Source: Bifidobacteriaceae bacterium (lineage in GTDB: Bacteria > Actinomycetota > Actinomycetes > Actinomycetales > WQXJ01). From it: a stretch of 64,000 nt of DNA. The first letter of the stretch is position 1. Each line of letters starts with the position of its first letter. The stretch lies in assembly GCA_031267825.1 (NCBI GenBank), contig JAIRYJ010000033.1, positions 32,519 through 96,518 on the forward strand, in the 5' to 3' direction. The notes under the pieces are model-generated. The model did no database searches. It was given only the letters and a program-made list of their open reading frames with translations, and had not been told where the DNA came from. Shown here in pieces: positions 21,023 through 39,833 of this stretch. The translations under genes and the position numbers were made by a program.

Positions 21023-24000
21023 ATGGCCGCAACCGGATCTGAGTCTGTCCGCCCGGGTCCCGGGCGGTCCTCGTTTACGCCTTTTGTGGTTGACCGTCAC
21101 ACCGAGCAACCTGACTGGGATATAGACCAAGCCGTGGCGGGTACCGCTGCGCCCTTGGCAGCCAGGGTGGCCGGAGTTTTGGGGGCTGATCCAGTCGGGT
21201 TGACGGAACCCGGCGCTGCTGGACCGTGGTGGCACCGGCCACGGGAGGACAACACCCGCCAACGGCTCCTGGAACGTTTGGCGGCCCTCGGGGAGGGTTC
21301 CCATCCGGTGGCTGACCAAGGCCGCGGCGTGGAACTGATCTATTGGCTGGGGTACGGCGGGGTGGATGAAACTGGACCGTATGTCGCCGCATCGGACACT
21401 AGTTCAGCCTCTGGCGTTGTTGAGGGACAGATCACCGCGCGGGAATTCGGCGATTGTCTGACAAAGATCCTGGAACGCGGCGGCCTGTTCCCTGTGTTGA
21501 TATTGGACATCCGCCACGGCGAGGCGTTCCTAGATGGCGTGCGGGCTGTCTTGGAGGAAGCCGCCATGCGGCACGGTAACGGCGGCGGCACTTGTAGCGA
21601 TGATCCATTCAGCCGCTATCTTCTGCTGACGGCCCCAACCCGGGGAAACGCCGCATTACCAGGTGAAACGCCTGGACGGATGCTGGACTTGATCAGCTAT
21701 GTGTTCCGGACAGAAACCCAGCTACCGGTCGCTGACCTGCTGGAGCGGATCAAACCAGAACAATTGATACACCACGAGGGTGCGGGGACACCTGAGCTGA
21801 TTCTCCAGTTGGACCAGGTTATGCCGCCACTGGGCCAGTCACTGGCTGACCAGGACAGTTTCAAGCTGACCGTTCAGGCCGCCGGGACAGGCATCACCGG
21901 TTTCTTCCAGCGAGGAGCTAGCTGGGAGGCAACAGCTGGCGAACTGGTATTGGATTTCACTGGCCGGGATGAGGAACGCGAGCAGATCGGCCGTTGGGTT
22001 ACTTCTGGCGAGGGCGGTCTGCTGGCAGTCGTGGGGGATCCGGGAACTGGCAAGTCGGCCCTGCTGGGGGATGTGGTGATGCGTGCCTCAGGTCCGCTCC
22101 GCCAAGCGTTGATTGATGCCGGTTTAGCTGAACCGTCGCAATGGGATGACATCCTGGCGGAGCACGGCTGGACGGCCACGGTGAACTTGACTGGGCTGGA
22201 TGCGGCCGAAGCGGCCGAAAGGCTGGGCGCTGAAGCGTTCAAAGACGATTGGGGCGAAGTCACGGCCGAAGCGGAGGACTGGTTGGCTAATGAAGGGCTG
22301 ACTGATGATTGGGCTAAAGCCGAATCCGCCAGGCAACGCGACCCTGTTAGGCGTTTGTTGTCGCTGGCGGACCAGGCGGAAGACCAGCGATTAGTGTTCA
22401 TTGTTGATGGTTTGGATGAATCGGTCCGGCCGTTCGAAGTGGCCGCCGACTTGTTATGTCCTCTAGCCAGGACCGGGTGGGTCACTGTGGTGGTCGGTAC
22501 AGGCCGATCCGTCAATTCCCAATCAGGCCAGACCGAGTTTGGTCCGTTTGATCTGGTGAACGCGCTAAACCCAGCCATGGTGATAGAACTCGACCGGGAC
22601 GCGGCGTCAATGCGCCGCTATCTGGCCGCCCGCCTGCTGCGAAAACTGGCGCCCGGGGCCGCCGCATCGAACGGAGACGATCCGCTAGGCGTACTGGTTG
22701 ACGACTTCGCCGGGCTAGTGGCCTCAGTTGCGGGACAGCCGTTCCTGTTCGCCCGGCTTTGCGCCGCTGAGGTTGAAACCGCCGACGACCCAGTGGCGTT
22801 GATGGAAGAGGCCTTGTCTGATGGTTTGGAACGAACTGTTGGTGGTGGTTGCGCGGAGGTATTCGGGCGCGCGCTGGACCGGATCGAGGCGGCCGCGCCA
22901 GGTAACCGGGCCCTGTTGGAGGCATTGGTTTTGAGTCTGGGACGGGGCGTGCCGCTGCGGGACAGTGTTTGGGCCACGATGGCGAAGGGGCTGGCCCCAG
23001 CGGGTGCACGGCTTGAGGCGGATACGGTTTTGGGTTTGTTGAAATCCCAGGCCAGCGCCTACATCCGCGCGGACATTGATTTGGGCCAGACTGTCTACCG
23101 GTTAGCGCACCGGTCTTTCGCGGAAACGGTCATGACACGGATGGCTTGTGGCGAGGCAAACCCGCCAGGTGCGGTCCGCTCAGCGCACCAGCGGGTCGTG
23201 GAAGCGCTGACCTTTGACGTTTTGGCGGCCCATACCGTGGACGATGCCGCCGGGCAGGCCAACAGCAGAACCGCCGGAGGACGTTGCGCAAGACCCATCC
23301 CGGACCAAGTTGACGCGACGCGGGCAAGTGACTCACCAGCCGAAACGCGGGAGACCGACATCGTTTGGTGTTCCATGAGCCCGTCATCAGACAGGCCACC
23401 AGGCCGCGTCAACCCGTATGTCGCCTATTACTTGCCAGCTCACTGCGGCATGAGTGGCCCCGATGGTTGGGGAATGGTTGAATCTCATCCCGAGGTGTTG
23501 GACTATCTGACGCCGAGCCGGGTGGCATCCTGTGCGCTCGGAGTCGCCAACGGGCCAGATAGGACACTACCGAACGTGGCGGCGGTGGCGGACGAGGAGT
23601 ATTTGCTGGGCCGCCTGGGGGATCTTGATCAGCGGGCACTGGTTCGCGAGTTGCAGGCCTGGTGTTATGGCACACCAGGTGGACGCGATTCAGCCGGGGT
23701 ACAAGGTGACCGGCCGTATGTCGTGTGGGCTGACCTGCTGGTGCACATCCCGCACCGGACCATCATGGGCCGTCAACCGGCGTACGCGTTGACGGCTGTG
23801 AAGGTGGGTGATCGGCCTTTGCTCGCCTCGGGCAGCGTCGACGGCACTGTCAGGCTTTGGGATCCGGTGACAGGTGAACTGGCGGCACCCGCACTCAAGG
23901 GCCACAGCGACGGGGTTGAAGCGCTGGCTGCGGTGGCCTTGCCGAACGGTCAGCGGCTGCTGGCCTCTGGCAGCTTTGATGGCACGGTCAAGCTGTGGGA

Positions 24001-25651
24001 TCTGGCAACCGGCCAACAGATTGGCCCCACATTTGAAGGCACCATCTACGGGTTCAGATCGCTGGCCGCACTGACCATGCCGGACGGTCGGGTGCTGCTT
24101 GCCGGAGGTAGTGACGATGGCACAGTCAGGTTGTGGGATCTGGCGACCTATCAACAGGTCGGCCCTGTGCTCGTCTGTCATTCTGGCCCCGTCGCGGCGT
24201 TGACCTCAGTGACCATGTCAGACGGCCGGGTGTTGCTTGCCTCAGGCGGTTTTGACGGGATGATCCGGTTTTGGGACCCAGTGACCAGCCAACAGGCCGG
24301 GCAAGCGCTCGCGGGTCACGAGAACGGAGTTCTCGCACTGACCACGGTGGCCTTGCCTGATGGCCGGGAACTACTCGCATCCAGCGGCGGTGACGTCACA
24401 TTTCGGTTGTGGGACCTAGTAGCGGGTCAACAGGTCAACCCTTCTTTCGAGGATCGCATCCAGCCGGCTGAAGCGCTGGCCGCGGTGACCGCCGACGGCC
24501 GGGAGTTACTCGTCTCGGGAGACATCGAAGGATTGATCCAATATTGGGATCCGGCTACTGGCGAACGAGTTGGTGGGTCGCTCAAGGGCCACACCACCAT
24601 AGTCAAGGGGCTGACCACAGTGACTGTGGACGGCCAGGGGCTGCTAGCCTCCAGCGGTGATGACGACATAATCCAGTTGTGGGGCCCAGGAACCAACCTG
24701 CGGGATGGTTCCGGACCAAAAGGCCGGGTCGGCCACGTCTGGGCGTTGGCAGCGGTGAACCTGCCGGACGGCCGGGAGCTGCTCGCTTCAGGCGGTGAAC
24801 GCGCCATGATCCGGCTGTGGGACCCGTTGACCGGTCAACAGATGAGCCAAGCGTCTGAGAATCCAACAGGCCAGGACGGAGCGTTGGCGGCGGTTTCAGT
24901 GAACGGCCGGGGATTACTCGTCCGCAGTCTTCCGGACGGCTTGGTTTGGTTATCGGATCCGGTAACTTTCGAGCCGGTTGGTCCCGGATTCAAGAGCCCA
25001 ACTGGCCAGGCTCAAAGATTGGCCTCATTGAACCTGCCCGATGGCCGGACGTTACTGGCCACTGGCGGTGAGGGCGGCACTGTCTGGTTGTGGGATCTAA
25101 CAAGCGACGAACGGGCGGGCCGTCCACTGAGAGATGAAACAGACTGGGTTCTGGCACTGGCCGCGGTAAACCTGCCGGACGGCAGGACACTATTCGCTTC
25201 GGCCAGTAACCATGGAACGATCCGGCTGTGGGATCCTGCGACCTGTGAACAAGCCATCTCGCCGATCAACAGTCACAACGGCTGCGTCTTCGCGCTGGCC
25301 GCTCTGACCATGCCTGACGGCCAGGAACTGCTCGTTTCCGGGGGCGACGACAGGATCATCCGGTTGTGGGATCCGGCAACCGGTGAACTGGCCGCCGCCC
25401 CGCTTAGGGATCAGCCACGCTCGGTAACCGAATTGGCGGCGATTGATCTACCTGACGGCCGACGACTGCTCGCCTCAGGCGGCGGCAACGCGCCGGTTCA
25501 GTTGTGGGGTGCGTCATCGTCCGGTCTCACGCCGCTGGCCGCGATCCACACGGCCACGGGAACTAGTTGCCTCGCCCCAGTTGGTTCAGGTCGGCTTGCC
25601 GTGGGCTTACAAACCGGCCTGGCCGTCTACGACCTCAATAGCATCCCGTAA
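21023..25651 (+). CDS. STAND NTPase: caspase-like N-terminal module + NACHT-type P-loop + helical arm + 14 WD40 repeats
   Basis: 1542 aa. Walker A is GDPGTGKS (22034-22057). Walker B is LVFIVDGLDES (22391-22423). 14 repeats of the type DGRxLLASGsxDGTvRLWD run from about 23770 to 25650, consistent with two 7-bladed propellers. Confidence 0.9.
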   Translation: MAATGSESVRPGPGRSSFTPFVVDRHTEQPDWDIDQAVAGTAAPLAARVAGVLGADPVGLTEPGAAGPWWHRPREDNTRQRLLERLAALGEGSHPVADQGRGVELIYWLGYGGVDETGPYVAASDTSSASGVVEGQITAREFGDCLTKILERGGLFPVLILDIRHGEAFLDGVRAVLEEAAMRHGNGGGTCSDDPFSRYLLLTAPTRGNAALPGETPGRMLDLISYVFRTETQLPVADLLERIKPEQLIHHEGAGTPELILQLDQVMPPLGQSLADQDSFKLTVQAAGTGITGFFQRGASWEATAGELVLDFTGRDEEREQIGRWVTSGEGGLLAVVGDPGTGKSALLGDVVMRASGPLRQALIDAGLAEPSQWDDILAEHGWTATVNLTGLDAAEAAERLGAEAFKDDWGEVTAEAEDWLANEGLTDDWAKAESARQRDPVRRLLSLADQAEDQRLVFIVDGLDESVRPFEVAADLLCPLARTGWVTVVVGTGRSVNSQSGQTEFGPFDLVNALNPAMVIELDRDAASMRRYLAARLLRKLAPGAAASNGDDPLGVLVDDFAGLVASVAGQPFLFARLCAAEVETADDPVALMEEALSDGLERTVGGGCAEVFGRALDRIEAAAPGNRALLEALVLSLGRGVPLRDSVWATMAKGLAPAGARLEADTVLGLLKSQASAYIRADIDLGQTVYRLAHRSFAETVMTRMACGEANPPGAVRSAHQRVVEALTFDVLAAHTVDDAAGQANSRTAGGRCARPIPDQVDATRASDSPAETRETDIVWCSMSPSSDRPPGRVNPYVAYYLPAHCGMSGPDGWGMVESHPEVLDYLTPSRVASCALGVANGPDRTLPNVAAVADEEYLLGRLGDLDQRALVRELQAWCYGTPGGRDSAGVQGDRPYVVWADLLVHIPHRTIMGRQPAYALTAVKVGDRPLLASGSVDGTVRLWDPVTGELAAPALKGHSDGVEALAAVALPNGQRLLASGSFDGTVKLWDLATGQQIGPTFEGTIYGFRSLAALTMPDGRVLLAGGSDDGTVRLWDLATYQQVGPVLVCHSGPVAALTSVTMSDGRVLLASGGFDGMIRFWDPVTSQQAGQALAGHENGVLALTTVALPDGRELLASSGGDVTFRLWDLVAGQQVNPSFEDRIQPAEALAAVTADGRELLVSGDIEGLIQYWDPATGERVGGSLKGHTTIVKGLTTVTVDGQGLLASSGDDDIIQLWGPGTNLRDGSGPKGRVGHVWALAAVNLPDGRELLASGGERAMIRLWDPLTGQQMSQASENPTGQDGALAAVSVNGRGLLVRSLPDGLVWLSDPVTFEPVGPGFKSPTGQAQRLASLNLPDGRTLLATGGEGGTVWLWDLTSDERAGRPLRDETDWVLALAAVNLPDGRTLFASASNHGTIRLWDPATCEQAISPINSHNGCVFALAALTMPDGQELLVSGGDDRIIRLWDPATGELAAAPLRDQPRSVTELAAIDLPDGRRLLASGGGNAPVQLWGASSSGLTPLAAIHTATGTSCLAPVGSGRLAVGLQTGLAVYDLNSIP

Positions 25652-25689
25652 CCCGACCACTGGCGGCATCTCACCCAGTCAGCGATCAG

Positions 25690-26286
25690 CCGAAGCGCGA
25701 TCTCGAGAACTATGACGGGCAAAGGCCGGGCATCCCCGGCCGACCTACACGGGCCAATTCGATGCCAGGCTGCCTGCCCGCGTCCAGTTGCCAGCCGGGC
25801 AGAACCCGGATCTTTCACAAGTGACCGCCGACAGTGACGACAGACCATGGGCGTAAACGGCTGTCGATCAAGACGGCCACCCAGTCGAGGTCGCCTTCAG
25901 CCGCACGCACCACTGCCTGACTAGACCGGCCCGTTGGAGCTTCAACACAAAGACTCCCGTCACCGAGACGGCCCGCGCCGTCCCACTCGGAGTCCTTGAC
26001 TTAACATTCGGCGAGTTCGGCCAAATCAAGCGTGACGGCGTCCACCTGAAACCGACCATGGATACCGCCGCCACCGTCACAATCGACCTATCCGTCGAAA
26101 CTGGAACAGGTCGATTTCCTGTGTGCCGCCACGGCTATCGTTTACCGCTCTGAGATGTATTCCCTCAGGCCTGAAGTCTATAAGGGACTCAGCCAAGACC
26201 TGATAGTCATCGAGTATGGCGAAACCCGCAACCCTGACGCCCAAGTCCCGGACTCATTGGAGTCCTTCTTCCCTGACCTGTCCTAA
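25690..26286 (+). pseudogene. Decayed paralogue of the 283-aa gene at 20052-20903
   Basis: About 90% nucleotide identity by eye over the aligned core (25861-26095 vs 20256-20490), including a roughly 78-nt identical block. In-frame TAA at 25854-25856. A deletion of about 230 bp relative to 20490-20715 causes a frameshift. Confidence 0.75.
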
Positions 26287-26350
26287 AGAACAATCGGACG
26301 TCAGGATACAAAACGTCACCGGCCCGCCAATAGCCAGGCCACCAAATGAA

Positions 26351-26382
26351 GGTGGCCCCGGCGCCTAAGCGCCGGGGCCACC
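26351..26382 (-). terminator. Strong hairpin downstream of cydB
   Basis: GGTGGCCCCGGCGC-ctaa-GCGCCGGGGCCACC, a 14-bp perfect stem. On the minus strand it is followed by TTCATTTGG. Confidence 0.6.
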
Positions 26383-26447
26383 CGGAACAGTGCTGAGGAG
26401 GTGATTCCCGCCTCAGACTTGACTAGATCGCTAGATCAGCTTCAGAC

Positions 26448-28697
26448 CTACTTGGAGGCCGGTTCGAGGCCGGATTCATCCGGGATCCGGTCCGCTGAGA
26501 TGCGGCGGCGGAAGACCCAAATTGACCAAGCCTGATAGGCCAGCACAATCGGCACCAAGCAGGCGGCCACAATGGTCATCAGCTTGAGTGTCAACGGGCT
26601 GGAGGCCGCGGCGAAGATCGGCTGACCGGTGATGACATCACCGCTTTCGAACTCAACCAGATCGGTGTGCTCTTGCAGCAAACCAAGCGATACCAGAGCG
26701 TTGAGAGCCTTGTTGGCGTTGACAACCCTGTCATTCAGGTTGGCCAAACCGGCCTCATTGTTCCAGTCGACACCCGAGATTTCGGGGTCGTTGCTGGTGA
26801 CAACCGCTGTGATATCTAGACCATCATGGAAGGTCTGGGTTGCCGGGTTATCGGCCACACTCTGGAGCGTGGCGACAACGTAACCGTCCGGCGTGGGCGA
26901 GACAACCTGGCCCACACTCTTGGCGATTTCTGGCACCAGTGCTTCAACCGTGTTCGCGATTTGCGGTACACAGGCTTCAATGGTGATCGCGACTTGCGCT
27001 GCCACATCGGCTGCGGGCAGGCCACCAATGGTGGCGCTACCGGCTTGGATGTCAGCCACAATCTGGCCGACTAGAGCATCAGTCGGTTCGATCCCCAAAC
27101 GCAGCAGCGTGATCTTAACCGTGGTCACAACGTTGTCCTGGGAGATGACCTGAGCCGCCGGGAAGGTCCCGGAAGCCACGTCAGCCAGTACAGCGTTGGT
27201 TATGGCTGTCGCCAGTGGGCTGGCTTCTAGGCCAACACCAATCTGGGACAAGTCAGCGACATGCGCACCAACCCGGGCGAAGGTGATGTCAACAACGTCC
27301 TTGACGTTGTCAACTGGGATAACGCCGCGAGCCGGGAATACTCCGTCCCTGACGTCTTCCAGAACACCAACTGTCACCTTGGTTGCCAGGTCGCCGGCTG
27401 TTACGCCAACACCCACATCAGCCAAATTGACGCCACTGGCCTTGACCCGGTCAAAGGTCGCGACCACAGTCGACTCAACATCACCTTGCGGGATCAGATC
27501 AATTGCCGGATAGGACACAACCGCGACGTCTTCCAGGATGCCGGTGGTCAGTTCAACGGCCTTGTCGCTCGGTGCGTCTGGCACCGTGGGCAGGCCTTCA
27601 TTCCTGACCTTGTCGAAGGTTCCGGCTACAACGTCATCAAGTGTGACGCCGTCAAGAACCACCGCGCCGACAATCGGATCAGCTATCGCGTCACCATGAA
27701 TGGTGACCCGTGAACCGTTGATGACGTTGGGGAACAAACCAGCGAAGATCGTCACAACCGCCGCTAGCAGTGCGACTGTCATCGCACCGAAGGCCAGGCC
27801 GAACTTCTTGGCCAGTGTGGTCAGTACTACAACCACTAGGGCCAGGGCCGCCAAGCCAATGGCGATCCAGACTATGACTGTCGGATGGTTGCCGCCGACA
27901 TACTTCAGGCCAAGCCAAACAACCCAAACCGCGGCGATGACCGTAGCCACAATCGACAGTTTGGGTGCCAGCGCCTCAGACCGCTGCCGTACTACGCCAT
28001 CGGTCTTGAGTGACAGGAAGATTGACCCGTGCGCCAAGAAGAGCGCTGCTGTGGTCAAGCCGCCCAGCAGCAAGAAGCCGGCATGGCCGAATACGAGGTC
28101 CCAGAAGGTGCCGTCGTAGAGGATCTTTGTTGGGCCCAGCTGAGCTGGGTCGACCGCTGCTTTGACACCAGACACCAAGTTGGCGAAGGCTACGCCCCAC
28201 AGGACAGCGGGGATCCAGGAACCGAGGATGATGCACCAGTCCCAAACCTTGCGCCAAGTGTCGGAGTTGATCTTGCCGCGATATTCGAAAGCCACCGCCC
28301 TGATAATCAAACCAACCAGAATCAGGAACAACGGCAGATAAGCGGCCGAGAACAGCGTGGCGTACCATTCCGGGAAAGCGGCGAAGGTGGCGCCACCAGC
28401 GGTCAGCACCCAAACTTCATTGCCGTCCCAGAGCGGGCCGATGGTCGAAAGCATGGCCCGGCGTTCTTTGTCCTTCTTACCGATGAACGGCAGAAGCATG
28501 CCGACGCCGAAGTCGAAGCCTTCCAGTACCAGGTAGCCGGTCCACAGGACCGCGATCAAAATGAACCACAAGAGCTGCAGCGCGGTTGGCGTTTCAGCCA
28601 GACGGTGCAGCAAACCTACTAGACCCTGAGCAGTGCTCTCAGTTACCTGAGGATCGACTGGGGCCGCGGAAACGAACGCGAGAACGTTACTCAACAT
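26448..28697 (-). CDS. cydB: Cytochrome bd ubiquinol/menaquinol oxidase subunit II with a large extracytoplasmic insertion
   Basis: 749 aa. CydB signatures are WFILIAVLWTGYLVLEGFDFGVGML, GPLWDGNEVW and the C-terminal AAASSPLTLKLMTIVAACLVPIVLAYQAWSIWVFRRR. AAGGAG lies 7 nt before the ATG at 28697, and the gene starts 19 nt after the cydA stop. Confidence 0.9.
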   Translation of the reverse strand: MLSNVLAFVSAAPVDPQVTESTAQGLVGLLHRLAETPTALQLLWFILIAVLWTGYLVLEGFDFGVGMLLPFIGKKDKERRAMLSTIGPLWDGNEVWVLTAGGATFAAFPEWYATLFSAAYLPLFLILVGLIIRAVAFEYRGKINSDTWRKVWDWCIILGSWIPAVLWGVAFANLVSGVKAAVDPAQLGPTKILYDGTFWDLVFGHAGFLLLGGLTTAALFLAHGSIFLSLKTDGVVRQRSEALAPKLSIVATVIAAVWVVWLGLKYVGGNHPTVIVWIAIGLAALALVVVVLTTLAKKFGLAFGAMTVALLAAVVTIFAGLFPNVINGSRVTIHGDAIADPIVGAVVLDGVTLDDVVAGTFDKVRNEGLPTVPDAPSDKAVELTTGILEDVAVVSYPAIDLIPQGDVESTVVATFDRVKASGVNLADVGVGVTAGDLATKVTVGVLEDVRDGVFPARGVIPVDNVKDVVDITFARVGAHVADLSQIGVGLEASPLATAITNAVLADVASGTFPAAQVISQDNVVTTVKITLLRLGIEPTDALVGQIVADIQAGSATIGGLPAADVAAQVAITIEACVPQIANTVEALVPEIAKSVGQVVSPTPDGYVVATLQSVADNPATQTFHDGLDITAVVTSNDPEISGVDWNNEAGLANLNDRVVNANKALNALVSLGLLQEHTDLVEFESGDVITGQPIFAAASSPLTLKLMTIVAACLVPIVLAYQAWSIWVFRRRISADRIPDESGLEPASK

Positions 28698-28716
28698 GAT
28701 TGTTTCTCCTTAGCCC

Positions 28717-30264
28717 TCAGTATGAGAAGGTCAGCGGCTTGGAATCATCCAAGTCAGCCTTGACCTCAGGGATCGATTCTTCATTGTTCAGCCCCTTGGC
28801 GACATACCGCTTCATGAGGTAGAACCAGGCGACCGCTAGTACCAGATAGATCAGCGTGAAGCAGATCACGGTCAGCCAGATAGCACCGGCGCCAACTACT
28901 GGTGAAACAGCGTTAGCCGTGCTTAGTGACAGGGCGGAAGATTCCTCCGTCAGCGGAGTCAACAAGTGGTCACCGTTAAGTGAGACAACCGGATAGACAA
29001 TGAACGGCTGGCGGCCGATTTCTGTGAAAATCCAGCCGAAAGCCGCGGCCAGGAACGGCATTGGCAACGACAGGATTGACCAGAACTTGAGGAAACCACT
29101 GCCGGATGTCCGTCCGCCGCGCAGAGCGATCAACGCGACCACCGCCAAGACGGCTGAGAACAAGCCGAAGGCGATCATCAGACGGAAGGTCCAGAAGGTG
29201 GCCTGCTGCGCTGGAATGAAGTCCAGCGTCTCGGCTTGTTCAGCCGTCAGGTTTTCTGGATCCCAGTAAGCCGCTTCTAAGGTCGTTTCAGCTTCCTCCA
29301 TGCCGACCACCTGGGCGCCGCCGTCACCGTAGGCTAGCCAGGACAGCAGCTTGGGGATCTCAATGATGCGGGTGGTTTCATCAACTACCTCACCATTGAC
29401 GACGGAGCATTGGCCGAAGGCGGCCACTGTAAATCCGGCCCCTTCACCTGGTTCAGGCGTCACGCAGAGTAATTCGGCTGCCGCCATCTTGGTTGGCTGG
29501 ATCTCGGTGATGACCTGGGCTTGGTGGTGCCCGGAGAAGATCAGTGAGATACCGGCGATGAGTACTGCCCAAGCACCAACAGCCCCACCGAGGCGGTAAA
29601 CCTTGGCTGAGGCCTCGTTGTCCGCCCGGCGGGCCTTGACCATCCACCAGATCGCGATGCCGGCCATGAAGGTGCCAGCCACCACGAATGAGGTTGAGAT
29701 GGTGTGCCAGAAGGTTGACAACGAGAGCTTGGAGAACAGCACCTCTGCCAGGTTGTCCATCTGGGCGCGCTGCAGCTCGCTGTCGAAGGAGGAACCCTTG
29801 GGGTATTGCATAAAGGAGTTAGCGGCCAGAATGAAGAAGGCCGACAGGTTAACCGCGAATGCCACCAGCCAGATCGTCAGCAGGTGTACGCCACGTGAGA
29901 GGCGCCCCCAGCCAAAGATCCAAATGCCCAGGAAAGTGGACTCAATGAAGAACGCGGCCAGCGCCTCCATCGCCAGGGGAGCGCCAAAGATGTCGCCCAC
30001 CATGCGTGAGTATTCAGACCAGTTCAAGCCGAACTGGAATTCCTGGACAATGCCGGTAACGATGCCCAGCGCGAAGTTGATCAGCAATAACTTGCCGAAA
30101 AATCGCGTGAGCCGGTACCACTCCTCTTTGCCCGTCTTGAACCAGAAGGTCTGAAGTAGCGCTACGAGCGGTGTCAGACCAATGGTCAAGGGTACAAAGA
30201 TGAAGTGGTACACAGTGGTAATGCCGAACTGCCATCTGGCTAGGTCGAGTGCTTCCACGTGCAC
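28717..30264 (-). CDS. cydA: Cytochrome bd oxidase subunit I
   Basis: 515 aa. LARWQFGITTVYHFIFVPLTIG, GWIFTEIGRQPF and a Q-loop region. Confidence 0.95.
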   Translation of the reverse strand: MHVEALDLARWQFGITTVYHFIFVPLTIGLTPLVALLQTFWFKTGKEEWYRLTRFFGKLLLINFALGIVTGIVQEFQFGLNWSEYSRMVGDIFGAPLAMEALAAFFIESTFLGIWIFGWGRLSRGVHLLTIWLVAFAVNLSAFFILAANSFMQYPKGSSFDSELQRAQMDNLAEVLFSKLSLSTFWHTISTSFVVAGTFMAGIAIWWMVKARRADNEASAKVYRLGGAVGAWAVLIAGISLIFSGHHQAQVITEIQPTKMAAAELLCVTPEPGEGAGFTVAAFGQCSVVNGEVVDETTRIIEIPKLLSWLAYGDGGAQVVGMEEAETTLEAAYWDPENLTAEQAETLDFIPAQQATFWTFRLMIAFGLFSAVLAVVALIALRGGRTSGSGFLKFWSILSLPMPFLAAAFGWIFTEIGRQPFIVYPVVSLNGDHLLTPLTEESSALSLSTANAVSPVVGAGAIWLTVICFTLIYLVLAVAWFYLMKRYVAKGLNNEESIPEVKADLDDSKPLTFSY

Positions 30265-30906: not shown

Positions 30907-33900
30907 GTGGGGTACCCAACGCGCCGTGGAGCATTCGTGACTGAAGATCAAACGCAATTCCAGATTGAACTGCCCGCACCCGTTAGGCGCGCCCCGCGCA
31001 GGGCTGCCAAATCCCAAACCAAACCCAGCTTGGCTGATCTTGACTCGCTGTTGGACCTGCCGGGCGGCTCCCAGGACACCCCTGACGCCGCGGCTAGTGC
31101 GGCTCAGCGGCCAAGGACACGCCGGGCCAGCAGGGCTACCCAAACCAGTCCGGGCACCAGCACCAGCCAGGAGGCGGCGGCTGCGGGCGTTGGCCAGGCC
31201 AGCCCACCAGAGGCGGGCCCAGATACGGCCACAGGCGCCAGCGGCTCCGGTCGCGGCCGGGCCACCAGGCGTAGCACCAGGTCAGCCGCCAGCCCAGACG
31301 CGGGCGAAGATACGGCCACAGGCGCCAGCGGTTCCGGTCGCGGCCGGGCCTCCAGGCGTAGCACCAGGTCAGCCGCCAGCCCAGACGCGGGTACGATGCC
31401 GTCCCCCGGCTCACAGCCCACCGTCTTGGAGGCAGCACCGACAGCGGGCGCCGTTTCGGAGCAGAGTCAGGCCGCACCTGGTGCGGCTCAGCGGCCAAGG
31501 ACACGCCGGGCCAGCCGGGCTACCCAAGTCGGCCGAACGACTGGCGGCGAACAAAACGCCGAATCGACCGGGATGGGCTCCAGCCAAGCGGCGGCCGCGG
31601 GCGTTGGCCAGGCCAGCACATCAGACGCGGGCCAAGATACGGCCACAGGCGCCAGCGGCTCCGGTCGCGGCCGGGCCACCAGGCGGAGCACCAGACCGGC
31701 CGCCAGACCGGCGAAGGCCGACCAGGGCGAGGCCACCAGAACCGGGCAAGACCAAACAGCCGGGACCGGGCAGGATGCGGCCGCCGGAACCGGCGCCACA
31801 GCGGCACAGGCAGCGGTGGCCGGAGCCAGCCAGGAGGCCGAAATCACCGGTTCGGGATTGGACCAGTCCGGTTTGGGATTGGGCCAGTCCGGGACTGGCC
31901 CGGACGCCGACCCGGCGGTTCGCCCAAGGGGACGTTCACGCCGCGCCACAGCACCAGCCGTCACGCCGCCACCGGCCATCACGCCGCCACCGGCCGACCA
32001 GCCGAACGGGTCCACCACCGCCCCAGCTAACCTTCAGACCGCATCCGAATCGGCTGGCCCAGATCAGACCGACACCGCGTCAGACGCAACATCCGTGGCT
32101 GACCACGAAACCACAACAGGCGCCAGCCCGCCAGGCCGGCGCCTGACAATGACCGCACTGCTGTTCCAAGCCCCAACGGCGGCCCCCGCCTTGGCCCGCG
32201 CCAAGCGGGCCAAGGCGGGCGAACCGCCAGTCGGCGCCGCCACCACACAAACCGCAGCCACATCCGGCGGGCCAAGCGGACCAGGCGGACCAGGCGGACC
32301 AGGGGGACCAGGGGGATCAAGCGGACCAAACGGATCGAGCGGATCAGGCGGGCCAAACGGATCAGGCGCCGCCAGGCAAGGCACGGCCGGAAAACCACCA
32401 GCCGGTCAGGCGCCAGCCAAAGCGGGCCGCCGCGCCACCTCCAAAACTCAAACCACTCAAACCGAACCAGGAGCGACAACCGGGGAGACGGCATCGGACA
32501 AACAACCGACCGGCACCGAACCAGACGATTCGGAAGACGCCAGCTCACGCCGCCGCCGCCGGCGCAACCGGACCGGACGCAAAACCGAAACAACCGGCGA
32601 AGTCTCATCAGAAGGTGTTACCGCCCTGGCCGGTTCAACCCGGCTTGAAGCCAAACGCCAACGGCGCAAAGAAAGCCGCGACGGCGGCAGGCGGCGCACC
32701 CCAATCACCGAAGCCGAATTCCTCGCCCGGCGCGAATCAGTTGACCGCCGCATGGTGGTACGCGAATCTGACGGCCGCACCCAGATCGCCGTCCTAGAAG
32801 ACGGTGTTTTGGTAGAACATCACGTCGCCCGGCGAACCCAACATTCACTGGTCGGCTCAATCTACTTAGGCCGGGTACAAAACGTTCTGCCCTCAATGGA
32901 GGCGGCCTTCGTTGACATTGGGCGTGGACGTAACGCTGTGCTCTACGCCGGTGAAGTCAACTGGGACGCGGCCGGGCTGGAAGGCCAACCACGGCGGATC
33001 GAACAAGCCTTATCCTCCGGTGACGCGATCATGGTGCAAGTCACCAAAGACCCGATCGGCCATAAAGGTGCCCGCCTGACCTCACAGATCACCCTGGCCG
33101 GACGTTACCTGGTGCTGGTGCCAGGCGGCGGAATGACCGGCATTTCACGCAAACTGCCAGACGCTGAACGCACCAGGCTGAAAAAACTGCTCAAAGAGAT
33201 CGTGCCTGAAGGTGTCAGTGTGATCGTCCGGACAGCGGCCGAAGGCGCCAGCCAAGCTGAACTGGTGGCGGACGTCGCCCGGCTGACCGCTTCTTGGGAG
33301 AAAGCCAAGCTCAAAGCCGCCACCGCCCACGCCCCAGCCCTCCTTAAGGGTGAGCCTGATTTGGCGATCCGGGTGGTGCGGGACATTTTCAACGACGATT
33401 TCAGTTCGCTCACAATCTCAGGTCAGGCCGCCTGGCAAGAAATCACCGCCTACCTTGATGAAGTCGCCCCAGAGTTGCGTGGCCGTGTCACGCAATGGGT
33501 CTCCGACCAGGACATTTTTGCCGCCGACCGGATTGACGAACAGTTAGCCAAAGGCATGGACCGCAAAGTCTGGCTGCCGTCGGGCGGGTCGCTGGTGATC
33601 GACCGGACCGAAGCGATGACTGTGATCGACGTCAACACCGGTAAGTTCACCGGTTCTGGTGGCACGCTTGAAGAAACGGTGACGCGCAACAACTTGGAAG
33701 CGGCCGAAGAGATCGTGCGCCAGTTACGCCTCCGCGACATCGGCGGGATCATTGTTATCGACTTCATTGATATGGTCCTCGAATCGAACCGTGACCTGGT
33801 GTTACGCCGCCTGGTTGAGGCTTTGTCCCGTGACCGGACACGCCATCAGGTAGCTGAGGTGACATCGCTTGGACTGGTTCAAATGACCCGCAAACGGGTT

Positions 33901-34459: not shown

Positions 34460-36148
34460 ATGAAGCCGCTCGACCCACGCCTGATCCGGCACGCCCGGGC
34501 GGCCCGCGCCTATATCATCCTGACCGCCGCACTTGGCCTGATCACATCAATCGCCGTTGTTGCTCAAGCCATGTTGGTGGCCCGCCTGGTCGGCACAATA
34601 GCGGCCGACGGCGACCTCACCCGACCAGCCTTGTTGTCCGGTTTGGGATGGATCACGCTGGCTATCGGACTGCGGGCCGCCGCCGCCTGGACCCAGGAAC
34701 GATTCGCTCACCGGGCCGCCACCAACACCATCGCCGAACTGCGCGGCGCGGTAGTTCGCCATGTGGTGGCACTTGGCCCGCGCTACGCCGCCAACCAGGG
34801 CGCCGCTGGCGCCGCCCAACTAGTGACCCGCGGCCTGGACGCCCTTGACCCTTACTTCGCGCGCTACCTGCCACAGTTGCTGATGGTTGCCACGGTTACG
34901 CCAATCCTGCTGGTCGTGGCTGGTTTTGTGGACTGGTTGTCAGCTTTGATCATGTTTTTGACCATCCCGCTGATACCGGTCTTCATGATGCTGATCGGAC
35001 GGGTCACCCAAGCCTATTCAGACCGCCGTTTACGCACCATGACACAGCTCGGTTCCCAAGTGATGGACCTCATCACTGGCCTGCCAACACTTAAAGCGCT
35101 CGGCCGCGAGAAAGGACCAGCCGCCCGCGTCCGGGAACTATCGCAAGCTCATCAACGGGCCACCTTCGGCACTGTCAAGGTCGCTTTCTTGTCAGGCGCG
35201 GCCCTTGAACTGATCGCCACCTTATCGGTCGCCTTGGTCGCGGTGTCAGTTGGTTTACGCCTCCAGGCCGGCAACATGGACCTGGTCAGCGGGTTAGCGA
35301 TCATTATGATCGCGCCAGAAATCTACCTGCCGCTACGTAACGTGGGAGCCCATTTCCACGCCTCAGCTAACGGCGTGGCCGCCTCCAGCTTGGCCTTCGA
35401 CATCCTGGCGATTGAACCGCCAGCCGATGGTTCCGTCCCGGCGCCAGACCTGAGCCAAGCCAGCATCGAGTTCCATGATGTTTCAGTGCGGGCCGCCGGG
35501 CGGGCCTACGACGCCCCGGCTGGTCTCAGCTTCAGCTTGCCGCCCGGCTCATTGACAGCCCTGACCGGCCCAAACGGCGCCGGCAAGTCAACCGCTGTGG
35601 CTGTTCTGCTGGGGTTGACCAGACCAGATCAAGGCCAAGTCCTGATCCGGCCCGCCACCGGCCAGCCAGTTGACCTGGCTGACATAGACCCGGCCAGCTG
35701 GTGGCGGCAGATCTCTTGGGCGCCGCAACGCCCAGTCTTACTGCCCGGCACAGTTCTACAAAACCTGCTCGAGGTTTACGACAAACCGGCCATTTTGACC
35801 CCTCAAGCCGAGGCCGCCGCCAAGGCGGCCGGCTTTGACCAAGTGGTCAGTTCGCTGCCGCAAGGCTGGTCCAGTCTGATTGGCCAAGGTGGCACTGGCT
35901 TATCAGTTGGCCAGCGCCAGCGCCTGGCGCTGGCCCGAGCCTTCTTACGTGACACCCCGTTGGTCATCTTGGATGAGCCGACGGCTCATCTTGATGTTGT
36001 CACTGAACAGGCTGTCCTAAATTCGATAACCCACCTGCCCGCTACTGGCAAGACAGTTCTGCTGGTGGCTCACCGCCCAGCTCTGCTGAAAGGTGCCCAC
36101 AACGCGGTCGCGGTGACCTCATCAGCCGCTACGGAGATGCCAGCATGA
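34460..36148 (+). CDS. cydD: Thiol reductant ABC exporter subunit CydD
   Basis: 562 aa. Begins MKPLDPRL, then a 6-TM domain and an ABC ATPase (GPNGAGKST, LSVGQRQRLALARA, ILDEPTAHLD). Overlaps cydC by 4 nt. Confidence 0.85.
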   Translation: MKPLDPRLIRHARAARAYIILTAALGLITSIAVVAQAMLVARLVGTIAADGDLTRPALLSGLGWITLAIGLRAAAAWTQERFAHRAATNTIAELRGAVVRHVVALGPRYAANQGAAGAAQLVTRGLDALDPYFARYLPQLLMVATVTPILLVVAGFVDWLSALIMFLTIPLIPVFMMLIGRVTQAYSDRRLRTMTQLGSQVMDLITGLPTLKALGREKGPAARVRELSQAHQRATFGTVKVAFLSGAALELIATLSVALVAVSVGLRLQAGNMDLVSGLAIIMIAPEIYLPLRNVGAHFHASANGVAASSLAFDILAIEPPADGSVPAPDLSQASIEFHDVSVRAAGRAYDAPAGLSFSLPPGSLTALTGPNGAGKSTAVAVLLGLTRPDQGQVLIRPATGQPVDLADIDPASWWRQISWAPQRPVLLPGTVLQNLLEVYDKPAILTPQAEAAAKAAGFDQVVSSLPQGWSSLIGQGGTGLSVGQRQRLALARAFLRDTPLVILDEPTAHLDVVTEQAVLNSITHLPATGKTVLLVAHRPALLKGAHNAVAVTSSAATEMPA

Positions 36149-38040
36149 ACCGGCCGTCAGCTAAGCCAGTCAAGACCAGTCAGGCCCAAGGATCCAGTGC
36201 GGTGCCTTCCGGCCGATCAGGTCCGGACGGATCAGCACCCAATCGACGGGCTTCAGGCGGGCCAGCCCGCGGCGGATCAGGTCCGGGCGGATCGGCACCC
36301 GGCGCCCTAGCGCCGGTCAAACGTCCACTGCGGCGGGCAGTCGGACTGACCGGCCTGAAAACTAGCCAACTGATCGCCGCGGTGTTCTTTGGTGCCCTCA
36401 CCCAAGCCGCTTCAGTCGCCTTGGCTGGAGCCTCAGCCTGGCTGATCGTACGGGCCTCGCAGATGCCACCAGTGCTCTCACTCCAGGTCGCGGTGGTTGG
36501 AGTACGGGCCTTCGGCATCACACGCGGCGTGTCACGCTATATCGAACGCCTCACAGCGCACCGGGTCGCCCTGAACGGCATGACCGAATTACGTGTCCGG
36601 CTCTACCAACGAATGGCCTCCGGCACTGGGGCTGGAGCCGTCGCCCTGAAACGCGGTGACCTGCTGGCGCGGGTCGGCGCTGACATTGACGATGTCGGCG
36701 ATCTAGTAGTTCGGGGCATCATCCCCGCCCTGGTAGCCGGGGTTGTGGTACTCGGTTCAGCCGGAGCCGTCGCGGCCTTCCTACCAGCCGCTGGACTGGC
36801 CGTCTTGATATGTCTGACAGCTGTCGGCATAGGCGGTCCGGCCTTGACACTAAGGGCCGCCCGAATCTCAGAACTGATGGCCTCAGCCGCCCGGTCAAAT
36901 GTTTCAGCCAGCGCCATGAACATCATTGAAAATGCCTCTGAACTGCGCGTTTCTGGCCAAATGAACCCAGCCATGGCATCCCTCAAGACTCACGAAACAG
37001 CCTTAGCTAAAGCCAATGACGCCGCCGCCAGGCCATCCGCCCTGGCTAACGCCCTAACCGAAATCGGTTCCGGGGCGGCCCTCATCCTGACCCTGTTGCT
37101 ATCCGCCGCCGCCTACAAGGCCGGTACCATCAGCGCCACCGAGGTGGCTGTGATTGTGCTGATGCCATTGGCGGCCTTCGAAGCGGTCGCCGCCCTATCC
37201 CCGGCCGCCGCCCAAGTTTACAAGTCACGGGCGGCCGCCAGCCGAATAGTCGCCCTAGCCGATGCCGGTCACCCGGACAGCCAGCGGTCAAGCCGGCCGA
37301 CTGCCGGGCCGAACGCCGCTAAGGCCGAAAGCGAACCCGAACCGGCGGCATCGGGCAAGACAAATCCAGCGGCTCGCGGCGACCTGATAGCCCACGACCT
37401 GACGGCCGGCTGGGTGGCTGGGCACCCGGTATTGACGGGAGTCAACCTACGCCTAGCCCCAGGCAGCGTGATGGGCCTGGTCGGAGCGTCCGGCGCGGGC
37501 AAAACCACGCTGCTGGCCAGCCTCGCTGGGCTGCTTGAACCCCTGGCAGGGCAAGCCCTAATTGGCCGAACACCACTCGTCGCCCTGACCTCTGAAGAAC
37601 GAGGCCGCCTAGTGGCCTTCATCCCAGAAGACGCCCACATCTTCGCCACCACGGTGTTAGAAAACCTGCGCGTCGCTGAAGGTAGCCTCACCCCCGCCAA
37701 AGCCGCCGGCGTGCTGCACCGGGTTGGGCTGGGCCGCTGGATGGCGAGCCTGCCAGATGGGCTTGACACCATGCTCGGATCTGGCGGGAACACCATCTCA
37801 GGCGGCGAACGCCGCCGCCTGTTACTGGCCCGGGCCTTGGTCAGCCCGGCCCAGTTCATCTTGCTGGACGAGCCTGGCGAACACCTCGACGCGGCTGACG
37901 CGGTGCGCCTGACCGGCCAGCTAATGCGGGCCGCCCGTAGTTCTGGCCGGGGCTTGCTGATCGTGTCGCACCAGGAGGCCTCACTGGCCGGAGCTGACCA
38001 GATCTGGCGGGCGAAGGACGGCCAGATAGTAGCCGCCTGA
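36145..38040 (+). CDS. cydC: Thiol reductant ABC exporter subunit CydC with a ~60-aa Gly/Ser/Pro-rich N-terminal extension
   Basis: 631 aa. TM domain plus ABC ATPase (GASGAGKTT, ISGGERRRLLLARA, LLDEPGEHLD). Confidence 0.85.
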   Translation: MNRPSAKPVKTSQAQGSSAVPSGRSGPDGSAPNRRASGGPARGGSGPGGSAPGALAPVKRPLRRAVGLTGLKTSQLIAAVFFGALTQAASVALAGASAWLIVRASQMPPVLSLQVAVVGVRAFGITRGVSRYIERLTAHRVALNGMTELRVRLYQRMASGTGAGAVALKRGDLLARVGADIDDVGDLVVRGIIPALVAGVVVLGSAGAVAAFLPAAGLAVLICLTAVGIGGPALTLRAARISELMASAARSNVSASAMNIIENASELRVSGQMNPAMASLKTHETALAKANDAAARPSALANALTEIGSGAALILTLLLSAAAYKAGTISATEVAVIVLMPLAAFEAVAALSPAAAQVYKSRAAASRIVALADAGHPDSQRSSRPTAGPNAAKAESEPEPAASGKTNPAARGDLIAHDLTAGWVAGHPVLTGVNLRLAPGSVMGLVGASGAGKTTLLASLAGLLEPLAGQALIGRTPLVALTSEERGRLVAFIPEDAHIFATTVLENLRVAEGSLTPAKAAGVLHRVGLGRWMASLPDGLDTMLGSGGNTISGGERRRLLLARALVSPAQFILLDEPGEHLDAADAVRLTGQLMRAARSSGRGLLIVSHQEASLAGADQIWRAKDGQIVAA

Positions 38041-38150: not shown

Positions 38151-39833
38151 ATGACGCGCGGGCCAACCAAAACTGAGCCGGAACTGCTGGCGGCGGTGCT
38201 GGCGCTGTCGCGGCGCCTCGACCTGACACAAGCCCTGGCCCAACTAGTTCAGACCGCGCCAGAACTGACCGGCGCTGAAGCCGCCGCCGTTAACGTGCTT
38301 GACGGACGCGGCGTCAACGAACGGTTCTACGCCCACGGGGCATCACCCGAACTGCACCACCAACTCCATGAGTTCCGCCGCGCACTGGACCTGATGGCCC
38401 GCATCCCAGCACATGAACCACTCATCCTGGATGATGTCCCAGCCAACCTAGTTGGTTTACCAGCCGACGCCCCAGCCCTAGTGAACAACTTTCTAGCGGC
38501 CCCAATCCGGGTGCGAGACACCGTCTTCGCTCACGTTTACCTAGTCAACAAGCCTGGCGGTTTCACCGCCGAAGACGCCGAAACAATGTCAGTCCTGACC
38601 ACAGCGGTCGGTGTGGCGGTCGAAAACGCCCAGCTCTACCAGGCTTCACAGCGCCGCGAGAACTGGTTGACGGCCGGTCAAGTCATCGCCACCATGCTGC
38701 TGTCCGGCGCGGATGAAGACGAAGCCCTCAGTGTTATAGCGACACAAGCCCGCCAAGTGGCCGGTGCGACCACCGCGGCACTGATACTGCCATCAATTGG
38801 CGGCCAGCTAGTGGTTGAGATCGCCGAAGGGCGTTCGGCCGACAGCCTGATAGGCACCCGGATGCCGCCTGACGGGCGTTCCAACACGGTCCTGACCGAA
38901 GGCATCGGCATGATAGTTGACTCGATGGCGGACGCCTACACCTTGCGGGTCGCCAAGCTGCGTGATTTTGGACCGGCCCTCTACGCGCCAATGCGTACCT
39001 CCGGCCACGGTGTTGGCGTCATGCTGCTGTTACGTGACCGGGGTGCGGCATCATTCGATCAAGCTGATCTGACAACCGCTGAATCATTCGCCGCGCAAGC
39101 CGCTTTAGCCTTAGTGCTGGCTGAAGCGCGCCACACCAAAGACCTGGCAGCCATGGTTTCCGAGCGCAGCCGGATCGCCCGCGACCTGCATGACTTAGCG
39201 ATTCAACAGCTCTTCGCCACCGGCATGCGCCTCGAATCAGCCCGCCGTGACGCCACCGCCGGGGTAGAGCCGCAAGGCCTGGTCAAGACACTGACCGACG
39301 CTTTGGATTCGATCGATTCAACGGTCCGTGAAATCCGGTCAATCGTTTCCCATCTGCGTAACCCCGGCACCGACGAGCCAGTCACCGAACGTCTACGCCA
39401 TGAAGCCTCCACTGCCCGGGCTTTGCTCGGGTTCGCGCCGTCATTGGTCATGCTGTTAGACGGCCGGGCCCTGTCAGCTGGTCAAGCCGACCAAGACGCG
39501 GCCACCACCGAAGAATTGGTTCCAGCCTCCTTGGCGGATGATCTGGTCGCCGTGGTACGTGAAGGCCTGTCCAACGCTGGGCGTCACGCCGGAGCCTCAT
39601 CGGTCACAGTGACAGTCGGTTTGGATTCGCCTGGCGCCCTGACCGGGCGTCCCGGCCAGGTCACCGTCCGGGTTGAGGACGATGGCGTCGGTTTGCCCGC
39701 CGTACCGCAGCGGCAGTCCGGCCTAGCGAATCTCGCGGACAGGGCGGCCGCCCGTGGTGGCGTGTTCGAGTCCGGGCCCGGCCCGGCAGGCCGGGGCACC
39801 AGACTCGAATGGATCGTCCCATTAGGTCCGTGA
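38151..39833 (+). CDS. DevS/DosT-like sensor histidine kinase (GAF-GAF-HisKA_3-HATPase)
   Basis: 560 aa. FLAAPIRVRDTVFAHVYLVNK...AVGVAVENAQLYQ..RRENWL parallels mycobacterial DevS as I remember it. H-box is RIARDLHDLAIQQLFA, and the N-box region is REGLSNAGRHA. GATAAT ends 6 nt before the ATG, so the transcript may be leaderless. Confidence 0.8.
   Translation: MTRGPTKTEPELLAAVLALSRRLDLTQALAQLVQTAPELTGAEAAAVNVLDGRGVNERFYAHGASPELHHQLHEFRRALDLMARIPAHEPLILDDVPANLVGLPADAPALVNNFLAAPIRVRDTVFAHVYLVNKPGGFTAEDAETMSVLTTAVGVAVENAQLYQASQRRENWLTAGQVIATMLLSGADEDEALSVIATQARQVAGATTAALILPSIGGQLVVEIAEGRSADSLIGTRMPPDGRSNTVLTEGIGMIVDSMADAYTLRVAKLRDFGPALYAPMRTSGHGVGVMLLLRDRGAASFDQADLTTAESFAAQAALALVLAEARHTKDLAAMVSERSRIARDLHDLAIQQLFATGMRLESARRDATAGVEPQGLVKTLTDALDSIDSTVREIRSIVSHLRNPGTDEPVTERLRHEASTARALLGFAPSLVMLLDGRALSAGQADQDAATTEELVPASLADDLVAVVREGLSNAGRHAGASSVTVTVGLDSPGALTGRPGQVTVRVEDDGVGLPAVPQRQSGLANLADRAAARGGVFESGPGPAGRGTRLEWIVPLGP

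Follow-up and report, generated by a model that had tools for sequence, protein, structure and literature searches.

What is a bacterium doing with a cytochrome bd subunit that has doubled in size? The question is raised by cydB, the gene for subunit II of the oxidase, in a 64,000-nucleotide stretch of the Bifidobacteriaceae bacterium assembly GCA_031267825.1 (contig JAIRYJ010000033.1, positions 32,519 to 96,518). We call this whole stretch the window and count positions from its first nucleotide. The subunits of bd oxidases have nine transmembrane (TM) helices, and the loop between helices 8 and 9, periplasmic loop 8 (PL8), is periplasmic (PMC8413341). The bd oxidases that have been studied structurally are almost wholly buried in the membrane, with an outer face that is bare except for the Q-loop of CydA, and CydB has been treated as a passive scaffold. 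Judged by its sequence, the 749-residue protein in the window is encoded by the regular cydB of its organism, which forms a set with cydA and cydDC. Its TM8-TM9 loop, ∼10 to 16 residues long in the bd oxidases studied so far, is expanded into an acidic, all-helical ectodomain of ∼365 residues. A known enzyme subunit appears to carry a new domain, and a conserved, folded outer domain that doubles the size of CydB would mean that the outer face of a bd oxidase can be elaborated.

The match of the protein to PF02322 (321.5 bits; cut-off, 35.6) is split in two, the better part spanning residues 40 to 336; TIGR00203 matches with 290.9 bits (cut-off, 117.3). In the alignment to Mycobacterium smegmatis CydB (7D5I_B), residues 39 to 327 correspond to chain positions 2 to 284 and residues 694 to 745 to positions 295 to 346; the linker between the two aligned pieces is 10 residues in 7D5I_B and 366 in the window protein. 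The solved actinobacterial CydB proteins (M. smegmatis 7D5I_B, Mycobacterium tuberculosis 7NKZ_B and 9FKA_B, and Corynebacterium glutamicum 8B4O_B) share the nine-helix fold, the motifs, and the partners cydA, cydD, and cydC with the window protein. Unlike it, they are 333 to 360 residues long, have a TM8-TM9 linker of ∼10 residues, and almost lack an N-terminal tail, which in the window is a 38-residue extension. D91 and E94 of the WDGNEVW motif are equivalent to Asp59.B and Glu62.B, which belong to the proton path in M. tuberculosis (PMC8413341); among 63 sequences, D91 is invariant and E94 is conserved in ≥90%. CydA has the expected ligand and quinol-site residues (H20, H187, M363, E415, and K259/E264) as well as a Cys pair in the Q-loop (C267/C286). 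With the CydA ligand residues, CydB D91 and E94, and cydDC all present, the enzyme looks functional.

The cydB gene starts 19 nucleotides after the end of cydA. In the public annotation, the gene is called from an internal TTG, codon 29 (region ∼28614), which gives P0001 with 721 amino acids (aa); an exact look-up of the 721-aa window protein gave no entry. We favor the ATG at 28697 because residues 1 to 28 are conserved in 22 orthologs and the ATG is preceded by an AAGGAG ribosome-binding site. Conservation in these orthologs extends over the first 40 residues, with A7, T19, A23, V27, L29, L30, and P37 invariant.

Homology to the solved nine-helix CydB structures places the insert on the outer face, in the periplasmic TM8-TM9 loop. 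The charge pattern agrees with this predicted topology: the parts of CydB that are expected to be cytoplasmic (GKKDKERR, YRGK, an AKK loop, and the FRRR tail) are rich in Lys and Arg. Since the N terminus of CydB is periplasmic, the N-terminal extension would lie on the same side of the membrane as the insert. An AlphaFold2 (AF2) model of the full-length protein, built from 63 sequences, has a mean predicted local distance difference test score (pLDDT) of 90.1 and a predicted template modeling score (pTM) of 0.81, with most of the insert above 90; a model of the insert alone, built from 25 sequences, has a pLDDT of 87.4 and a pTM of 0.80. Both models are helical. TM1 to TM8 fall within residues 39 to 321, and the insert lies between TM8 (299-321) and TM9 (701-732). 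A strand at residues 324 to 333 extends TM8 alongside a hairpin that residues 178 to 194 form in the TM4-TM5 loop, and each helix-loop-helix repeat of the insert has a short bridge in its FPA.G.IP loop. Foldseek matched the full-length model to 8B4O_B, 7D5I_B, 7NKZ_B, and 6RKO_B with E values of 4.5e-17 to 5.4e-16; for the solved actinobacterial CydB proteins, the target TM-score was 0.75 to 0.79, the root mean square deviation was ∼2 Å over ∼300 columns, and the core identity was 42 to 46%. The modeled protein thus has the nine-transmembrane-helix CydB fold, and the high pTM of the whole chain suggests that the ectodomain packs in a defined way on the membrane core.

The insert comprises a stem, three tandem repeats, and a C-terminal subdomain (Table 1). 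In local alignments scored with BLOSUM62, repeats 1 and 2 score 100 (z = 14.7), repeats 2 and 3 score 97 (z = 15.9), and repeats 1 and 3 score 69 (z = 8.5), compared with ∼25 ± 5 for shuffled sequences, none of which (0/500) reached an observed score. A hidden Markov model (HMM), built from the three units and iterated over the family, finds exactly three copies in the window CydB (380-429, 438-487, and 496-544; E = 1e-19 to 6e-23); residues 340 to 378 resemble a weak partial fourth copy (z of about 2.5). In orthologs, the same HMM finds two to four full copies, often with a partial remnant in front, and no copies in the shorter relatives. At the DNA level, only 57 of 180 aligned columns are invariant among the three units, and Tandem Repeats Finder reported no array over the repeat DNA. 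Because the DNA copies are so far diverged and form no such array, the repeats are ancient duplications rather than a product of recent slippage or of assembly.

The insert is strongly acidic, with a net charge of −33 and an isoelectric point (pI) of about 4.05, compared with a pI of 9.0 for the CydB core; its net charge ranges from −16 to −42 across all 22 orthologs. It has no Cys or His that is conserved among the orthologs, and the window insert also lacks Met. Across 23 sequences, 26 positions within residues 326 to 690 are invariant, including DPIVG (340-344), T530-L531-x-R533, G642, N655, A661, A664, A667, L668, and G672. The invariant residues are mostly hydrophobic or Gly, Thr, or Asn, and neither a conserved Asp/Glu cluster nor a Ca-binding motif was seen.

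These results bear out the original prediction, which had described a single uninterrupted CydB with an insertion of ∼365 aa in its last extracytoplasmic loop, facing outside the cell. The open reading frame, the family matches, and the 7D5I_B alignment support the first part, and the homology to solved CydB proteins together with the charge pattern supports the second. Its coordinates for the insert (residues 326-690, nucleotides 26628-27722) and the repeat block (nucleotides 27045-27563) are exact. The three ∼57-aa tandem units that it had outlined (379-435, 436-493, and 494-551) stand out by shuffling and by the HMM alike, and the 40-aa N-terminal extension that it had taken to be real is conserved in the 22 orthologs. 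The functions that it had suggested (docking, replacing an accessory subunit, or sensing) are conjectural.

To whom does this ectodomain belong? Among 5.8 billion proteins, we found 23 further long CydBs of 673 to 845 aa, all from independent assemblies and 52 to 74% identical to the window protein; 22 of the 23 cover 97 to 100% of the query. Their named sources are labeled as metagenome-assembled genomes (MAGs) of a "Bifidobacteriaceae bacterium" or a "Micrococcales bacterium." The 80 GTDB species-representative loci listed have mostly ordinary CydBs and at least one long form (L001, isolate Pcl387_bin9). No sequencing run was indexed for the window sequence; L001 was found only in termite-gut DNA runs ("termite gut metagenome"), and the Pcl387 bins are called MAGs from lower termites in a paper. 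Where source labels exist, the carriers of long CydBs are uncultured termite-gut Actinomycetota.

Loop length separates these proteins from other CydBs. In 79 listed species-representative CydBs, mostly from Actinomycetota with some from Chloroflexota, the TM8-TM9 loop has a median length of 16 aa and never exceeds 22. Among the 120 best database matches, the loop excess is 281 to 454 aa in the long forms, 143 to 145 aa in three forms of 532 to 534 aa, and 25 to 48 aa in forms of 411 to 422 aa, which include P0040 to P0042 from a separate lineage; P0044 (436 aa), with an excess of 84 aa, has the largest CydB PL8 excess outside the clade in this set. On a neighbor-joining tree built from the core columns only, with the insert excluded, loop lengths are nested: outgroups have 15 to 16 aa, one clade has 41 to 64, and its sister clade unites a group with ∼160 and a group with 297 to 473. 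The ∼160-aa loops, read by eye, already hold the C-terminal motifs of the long inserts (DIT... and ...NAN..L), and the repeats are found in long forms only. The N-terminal extension before TM1 is ∼5 aa in solved CydBs, 8 to 9 in P0040 to P0042, 21 to 35 in the 411- to 420-aa forms, and 41 to 43 in the mid-length and long forms. The nesting indicates that the insert grew stepwise and vertically within one termite-gut clade. The N-terminal extension lengthened in step with the loop. The C-terminal subdomain is the oldest part of the insert; in the 532- to 534-aa forms, its D(I/L)T and NAN motifs can be recognized by eye.

Some other CydBs are unusual in length. P0040 to P0042 (420-422 aa; P0042 is labeled Kineosporiaceae) represent, on the core tree, a separate actinobacterial lineage in which the same loop has independently lengthened to 46 to 53 residues of unrelated sequence. 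Other long "CydBs" were rejected as insert carriers: they have no PL8 excess, and in those with annotation CydB is fused to CydA, ABC, MFS, or NDH-2 domains. P0046 and P0084, read by eye, have Arg/Pro-rich read-through tails.

The operons also correspond. With the 413-aa (L083) and the 712-aa (L084) CydB, the gene order is RNase E, cydA cydB cydD cydC, a GAF-GAF-HisKA_3 kinase, and a response regulator; the locus of the 532-aa CydB (L082) is arranged alike, except that a PIN/PhdYeFM toxin-antitoxin pair separates cydB from cydD and that the stretch read contains no regulator. Because they share this gene order, the 413-, 532-, and 712-aa CydBs are orthologs, and none is a spare paralog. The loops in orthologous operons, of 16, 41 to 64, ∼160, and 300 to 470 residues, form a natural series for asking what an outer surface does for the oxidase, be it stability, quinol access, or envelope interaction. 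CydA varies among these loci, too. Its Q-loop is slightly longer in the termite-gut clade than in outgroup Actinomycetales, and its PL8 has ∼10 extra residues in the window, L001, L081, L085, and L082, whereas L084 and L083 have the shorter PL8.

The insert changes faster than the core, yet it is constrained. The mean pairwise identity among 23 long forms is 0.80 for the core, 0.61 for the N-terminal extension, 0.52 for the stem, 0.47 for the repeats, and 0.54 for the C-terminal subdomain. Nei-Gojobori ratios of nonsynonymous to synonymous substitution rates (dN/dS) are 0.27 to 0.6 for the insert and 0.09 to 0.27 for the core, rough values given that dS is near saturation. As estimated from these coding sequences, the insert is under purifying selection.

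Relatives of the insert were sought by sequence and by structure. Searched alone against 1.84 billion cluster representatives, it had two matches only, both to CydBs of the termite-gut clade; a profile of 14 inserts, run against the 5.8 billion proteins, retrieved only 18 long CydBs and no free-standing or otherwise fused copies. Residues 326 to 690 matched nothing in Pfam (even at E ≤ 1) or NCBIfam, and a sequence profile search of the PDB returned CydB cores only. The best Foldseek match of the insert model had an E value of 0.09 in the PDB (TM ≤ 0.2) and of 0.12 in BFVD. There was no Pfam or fold match to known alpha-helical repeat families (TPR, HEAT, ARM, Sel1, and others), and the repeat unit, at ∼57 aa, is longer than the units of the TPR, HEAT, ARM, and Sel1 families. 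The modeled insert is a candidate for a new helical-repeat fold without relatives in 5.8 billion proteins. A bd oxidase with such an ectodomain was found neither among solved structures nor in the literature searched, in agreement with the original prediction, which knew of none.

What might the ectodomain do? It has neither cofactor ligands nor an enzyme signature, is confined to these CydBs, and is part of the noncatalytic subunit, and for these reasons we favor a structural role. Our leading, if tentative, proposal is a built-in accessory or cap domain, made up of the ectodomain and the N-terminal helix, on the outer face of CydAB. Such a domain would bind no cofactor and perform no catalysis. 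Together with the N-terminal helix, it would cap the outer surface of CydB and would stabilize or shield the periplasmic face of CydAB, possibly reaching as far as the Q-loop and PL8 region of CydA, with which it may be in contact. The longer outer loops of CydA in the clade are compatible with a contact of this kind.

The best functional analogy for a cap role would be the C-terminal Q-loop insertion of long-Q-loop (L-subfamily) CydA, a periplasmic helix-turn-helix that is essential for CydA stability (PMC8413341). It, too, is a lineage-specific, helical, periplasmic elaboration that serves stability and not chemistry (PMC8413341), but it amounts to tens of residues compared with ∼365 in CydB, contains no repeats, and has an unrelated sequence. 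The small subunits CydX, CydS, and CydH/CydY are likewise noncatalytic additions that stabilize the CydAB core; they are separate single-transmembrane peptides within the membrane, whereas the addition in the window is a soluble domain fused into CydB. Actinobacterial bd oxidases lack CydX, CydS, and CydH (PMC8413341), which leaves room for another stabilizing solution. Finally, a sizeable outer-face domain on subunit II of a terminal oxidase is also familiar from the heme-copper oxidases. Their subunit II domain has a beta-rich cupredoxin fold, holds the CuA center in many members, and has a role in electron entry; the CydB ectodomain is unrelated to it, all-helical, and without conserved metal ligands.

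Several points weigh against a cap. The CydA loops are not consistently longer where the insert is larger: L084, with its 712-aa CydB, has a short PL8. The number of repeats varies from two to four and the repeats are the fastest-evolving part of the protein, which fits a spacer, a reaching arm, or weak constraint at least equally well. The AF2 alignments are shallow, and AF2 can be overconfident on regular helical repeats; the near-saturated dS, which leaves the dN/dS ratios rough, has to be counted here as well.

A bolder possibility is that the ectodomain is a previously unseen fold and gives the oxidase a new capability on the outside, either gating or stabilizing the CydA Q-loop from the CydB side or docking an extracytoplasmic partner. 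We consider this improbable. If Q-loop gating or partner docking were true, the bd oxidase superfamily would gain its first known extracellular module with a function, and in the docking version the oxidase would be regulated by, or wired to, something beyond the membrane. Whatever its role, a CydB with such an insert would surprise bd-oxidase specialists; the practical impact is limited, with carriers that are uncultured termite-gut bacteria.

Among the alternatives to a cap, the one that survives best, unlikely as we hold it to be, makes the insert a reaching or docking module: a helical-repeat arm of variable length that extends into the cell-wall zone and tethers the oxidase to envelope polymers or docks an extracytoplasmic protein, for instance a regulator or partner enzyme. 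The two to four repeats in orthologs, along with other indels, recall surface stalk proteins; conservation is lowest in the repeats, whereas the end motifs (DPIVG and GLANLN...NAN) are invariant, and the surface of the ectodomain is strongly acidic. However, no known wall-binding or adhesion domain matches the insert, and no conserved partner gene adjoins cydB, whose neighbors vary among loci. Moreover, both ends of the insert are anchored at the membrane, at points that only 10 residues separate in a canonical CydB, and pTM values of 0.80 to 0.81 suggest a compact body, not a free arm.

Two further explanations have, in our estimate, a small chance each. According to the first, charge itself is the function: the acidic ectodomain would be a surface that retains cations or protons on the outer face of a proton-releasing oxidase, which could suit gut compartments with unusual pH or ions. 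The contrast between the acidic insert, in the window and in all 22 orthologs, and the basic core speaks for this explanation, as does the termite-gut habitat, and alkaliphiles enrich acidic residues on the outward parts of their respiratory proteins. Yet exposed and secreted actinobacterial proteins are commonly acidic, the positive-inside rule alone favors acidic outer loops, and the acidic residues of the insert form no conserved cluster or Ca-binding motif that we could see.

According to the second, which we doubt to a similar degree, the insert is tolerated baggage, a largely neutral loop expansion that folds and adds nothing to enzyme function. CydB is noncatalytic and fast-evolving, and it evolves faster than CydA (PMC8413341). 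Within it, the insert evolves at ∼3 times the rate of the core, its length varies, and close relatives with 41- to 64-aa loops use the same operon. Against neutrality, dN/dS is below 1 in every pair, the 26 insert positions noted above are invariant, the fold is predicted with confidence, no ortholog has a stop codon or frameshift, and growth in size is monotonic along the tree without reversions.

That the insert is an artefact or a mobile element (an assembly chimera, a frameshift, or an intein or other insertion removed after translation) has next to no chance of being right: its unusual length and the different start of the database gene call speak for it, but the same architecture and frame recur in at least 23 full-length orthologs whose assemblies are independent, five long-form cydB genes inspected at the DNA level have no internal stops, the GC content is even along the whole gene, and nothing in the protein matches a Hint, intein, or endonuclease domain. 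An intein was rejected on two more grounds: the junctions (...FPNVI-NGSRV... and ...SGDVITG-QPIF...) are not of the Cys/Ser...His-Asn-Cys/Ser/Thr type, and the distribution is nested on the core-only tree, consistent with vertical inheritance, and not sporadic. Both cases that the original prediction had named as capable of refuting it, a chimera or frameshift and an intein-like element, are thereby excluded to the extent that sequence data can do so.

Table 1. Positions of cydB, its parts, and associated genes in the window
Feature	Position	Strand	Description
cydB	26448..28697	(-)	749 aa and a stop codon; subunit II of cytochrome bd, TM8-TM9 loop expanded; ATG start
TM9 and cytoplasmic tail (FRRRISADRIP...), residues 691-749, plus stop	26448..26627	(-)	Aligns to 7D5I_B 295-346; predicted helix 701-732
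Insert C-terminal subdomain, residues 552-690	26628..27044	(-)	Predicted helices 562-599 (long, 38 residues), 606-616, 650-670; conserved GLANLNxRxxNANxALxAL
Repeat 3, residues 494-551	27045..27218	(-)	Predicted helices 494-509, 520-533; invariant T530-L531-x-R533
Repeat 2, residues 436-493	27219..27392	(-)	Predicted helices 436-451, 462-479
Repeat 1, residues 379-435	27393..27563	(-)	Predicted helix 378-392, FPA-type loop, helix 404-420
Insert stem, residues 326-378	27564..27722	(-)	Predicted beta-strand 324-333 out of TM8, invariant DPIVG (340-344), partial repeat-like helix pair
CydB core, residues 39-325, TM1-TM8	27723..28583	(-)	Includes LEGFDFG (58-64) and WDGNEVW (90-96)
N-terminal extension, residues 1-38	28584..28697	(-)	Predicted helix 16-33; conserved in 22 orthologs; pLDDT 87-94 for residues 11-40
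Ribosome-binding site AAGGAG	28706..28711	(-)	8 nt upstream of cydB ATG
cydA	28717..30264	(-)	515 aa; cytochrome bd subunit I; PF01654, 462.7 bits
cydD	34460..36148	(+)	562 aa; TIGR02857, 569 bits (cut-off, 435)
cydC	36145..38040	(+)	631 aa; TIGR02868, 518 bits (cut-off, 329)
GAF-GAF-HisKA_3 sensor kinase	38151..39833	(+)	Pfam; comes after cydABDC in L082, L083, and L084

The window has cydD, cydC, and the kinase on the far side of the RNase E gene and not directly after cydB as in L083 and L084, a position that points to a local rearrangement in this genome. In its domain architecture, the kinase is reminiscent of the DosS/DevS type. The ∼800 bp directly downstream of cydB (25652-26447) hold no open reading frame of ≥100 aa, and their GC content dips to about 0.55; this stretch may be a scar of the rearrangement. 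No hydrophobic CydX-like small open reading frame was found in it. A 37-aa open reading frame after cydB in L081 was considered as a CydX-like subunit and rejected; it is Arg-rich and not membrane-like. In two of the long-form loci (L081, 12403-15415, and L085, 10580-13724), an import system with Peripla_BP_2 (together with FecCD in L081) and ABC_tran stands directly after cydB in place of cydDC; the system is of the iron-siderophore, heme, or cobalamin type. Scans of the window with Rfam and for tRNAs found nothing, and a scan for promoters and terminators around cydAB did not rise above shuffle expectation.

Two large genes flank the oxidase genes. Convergent with cydB, a gene on the plus strand (21023-25651) encodes a protein of 1542 aa that combines an AAA_16 (STAND-type) NTPase region with numerous WD40 repeats, which make up at least two beta-propellers. 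On the other side, 30907-34239 on the plus strand encodes the RNase E/G homolog, with its catalytic domain at residues 729 to 998. The N-terminal ∼720 aa of this homolog are of low complexity and rich in Ala, Gly, Pro, Ser, Thr, and Arg, with a GC content of up to 0.76, and the corresponding DNA includes an 87-bp tandem repeat in 2.1 copies (31207-31391) and a GGCGGACCA array (32266-32368).

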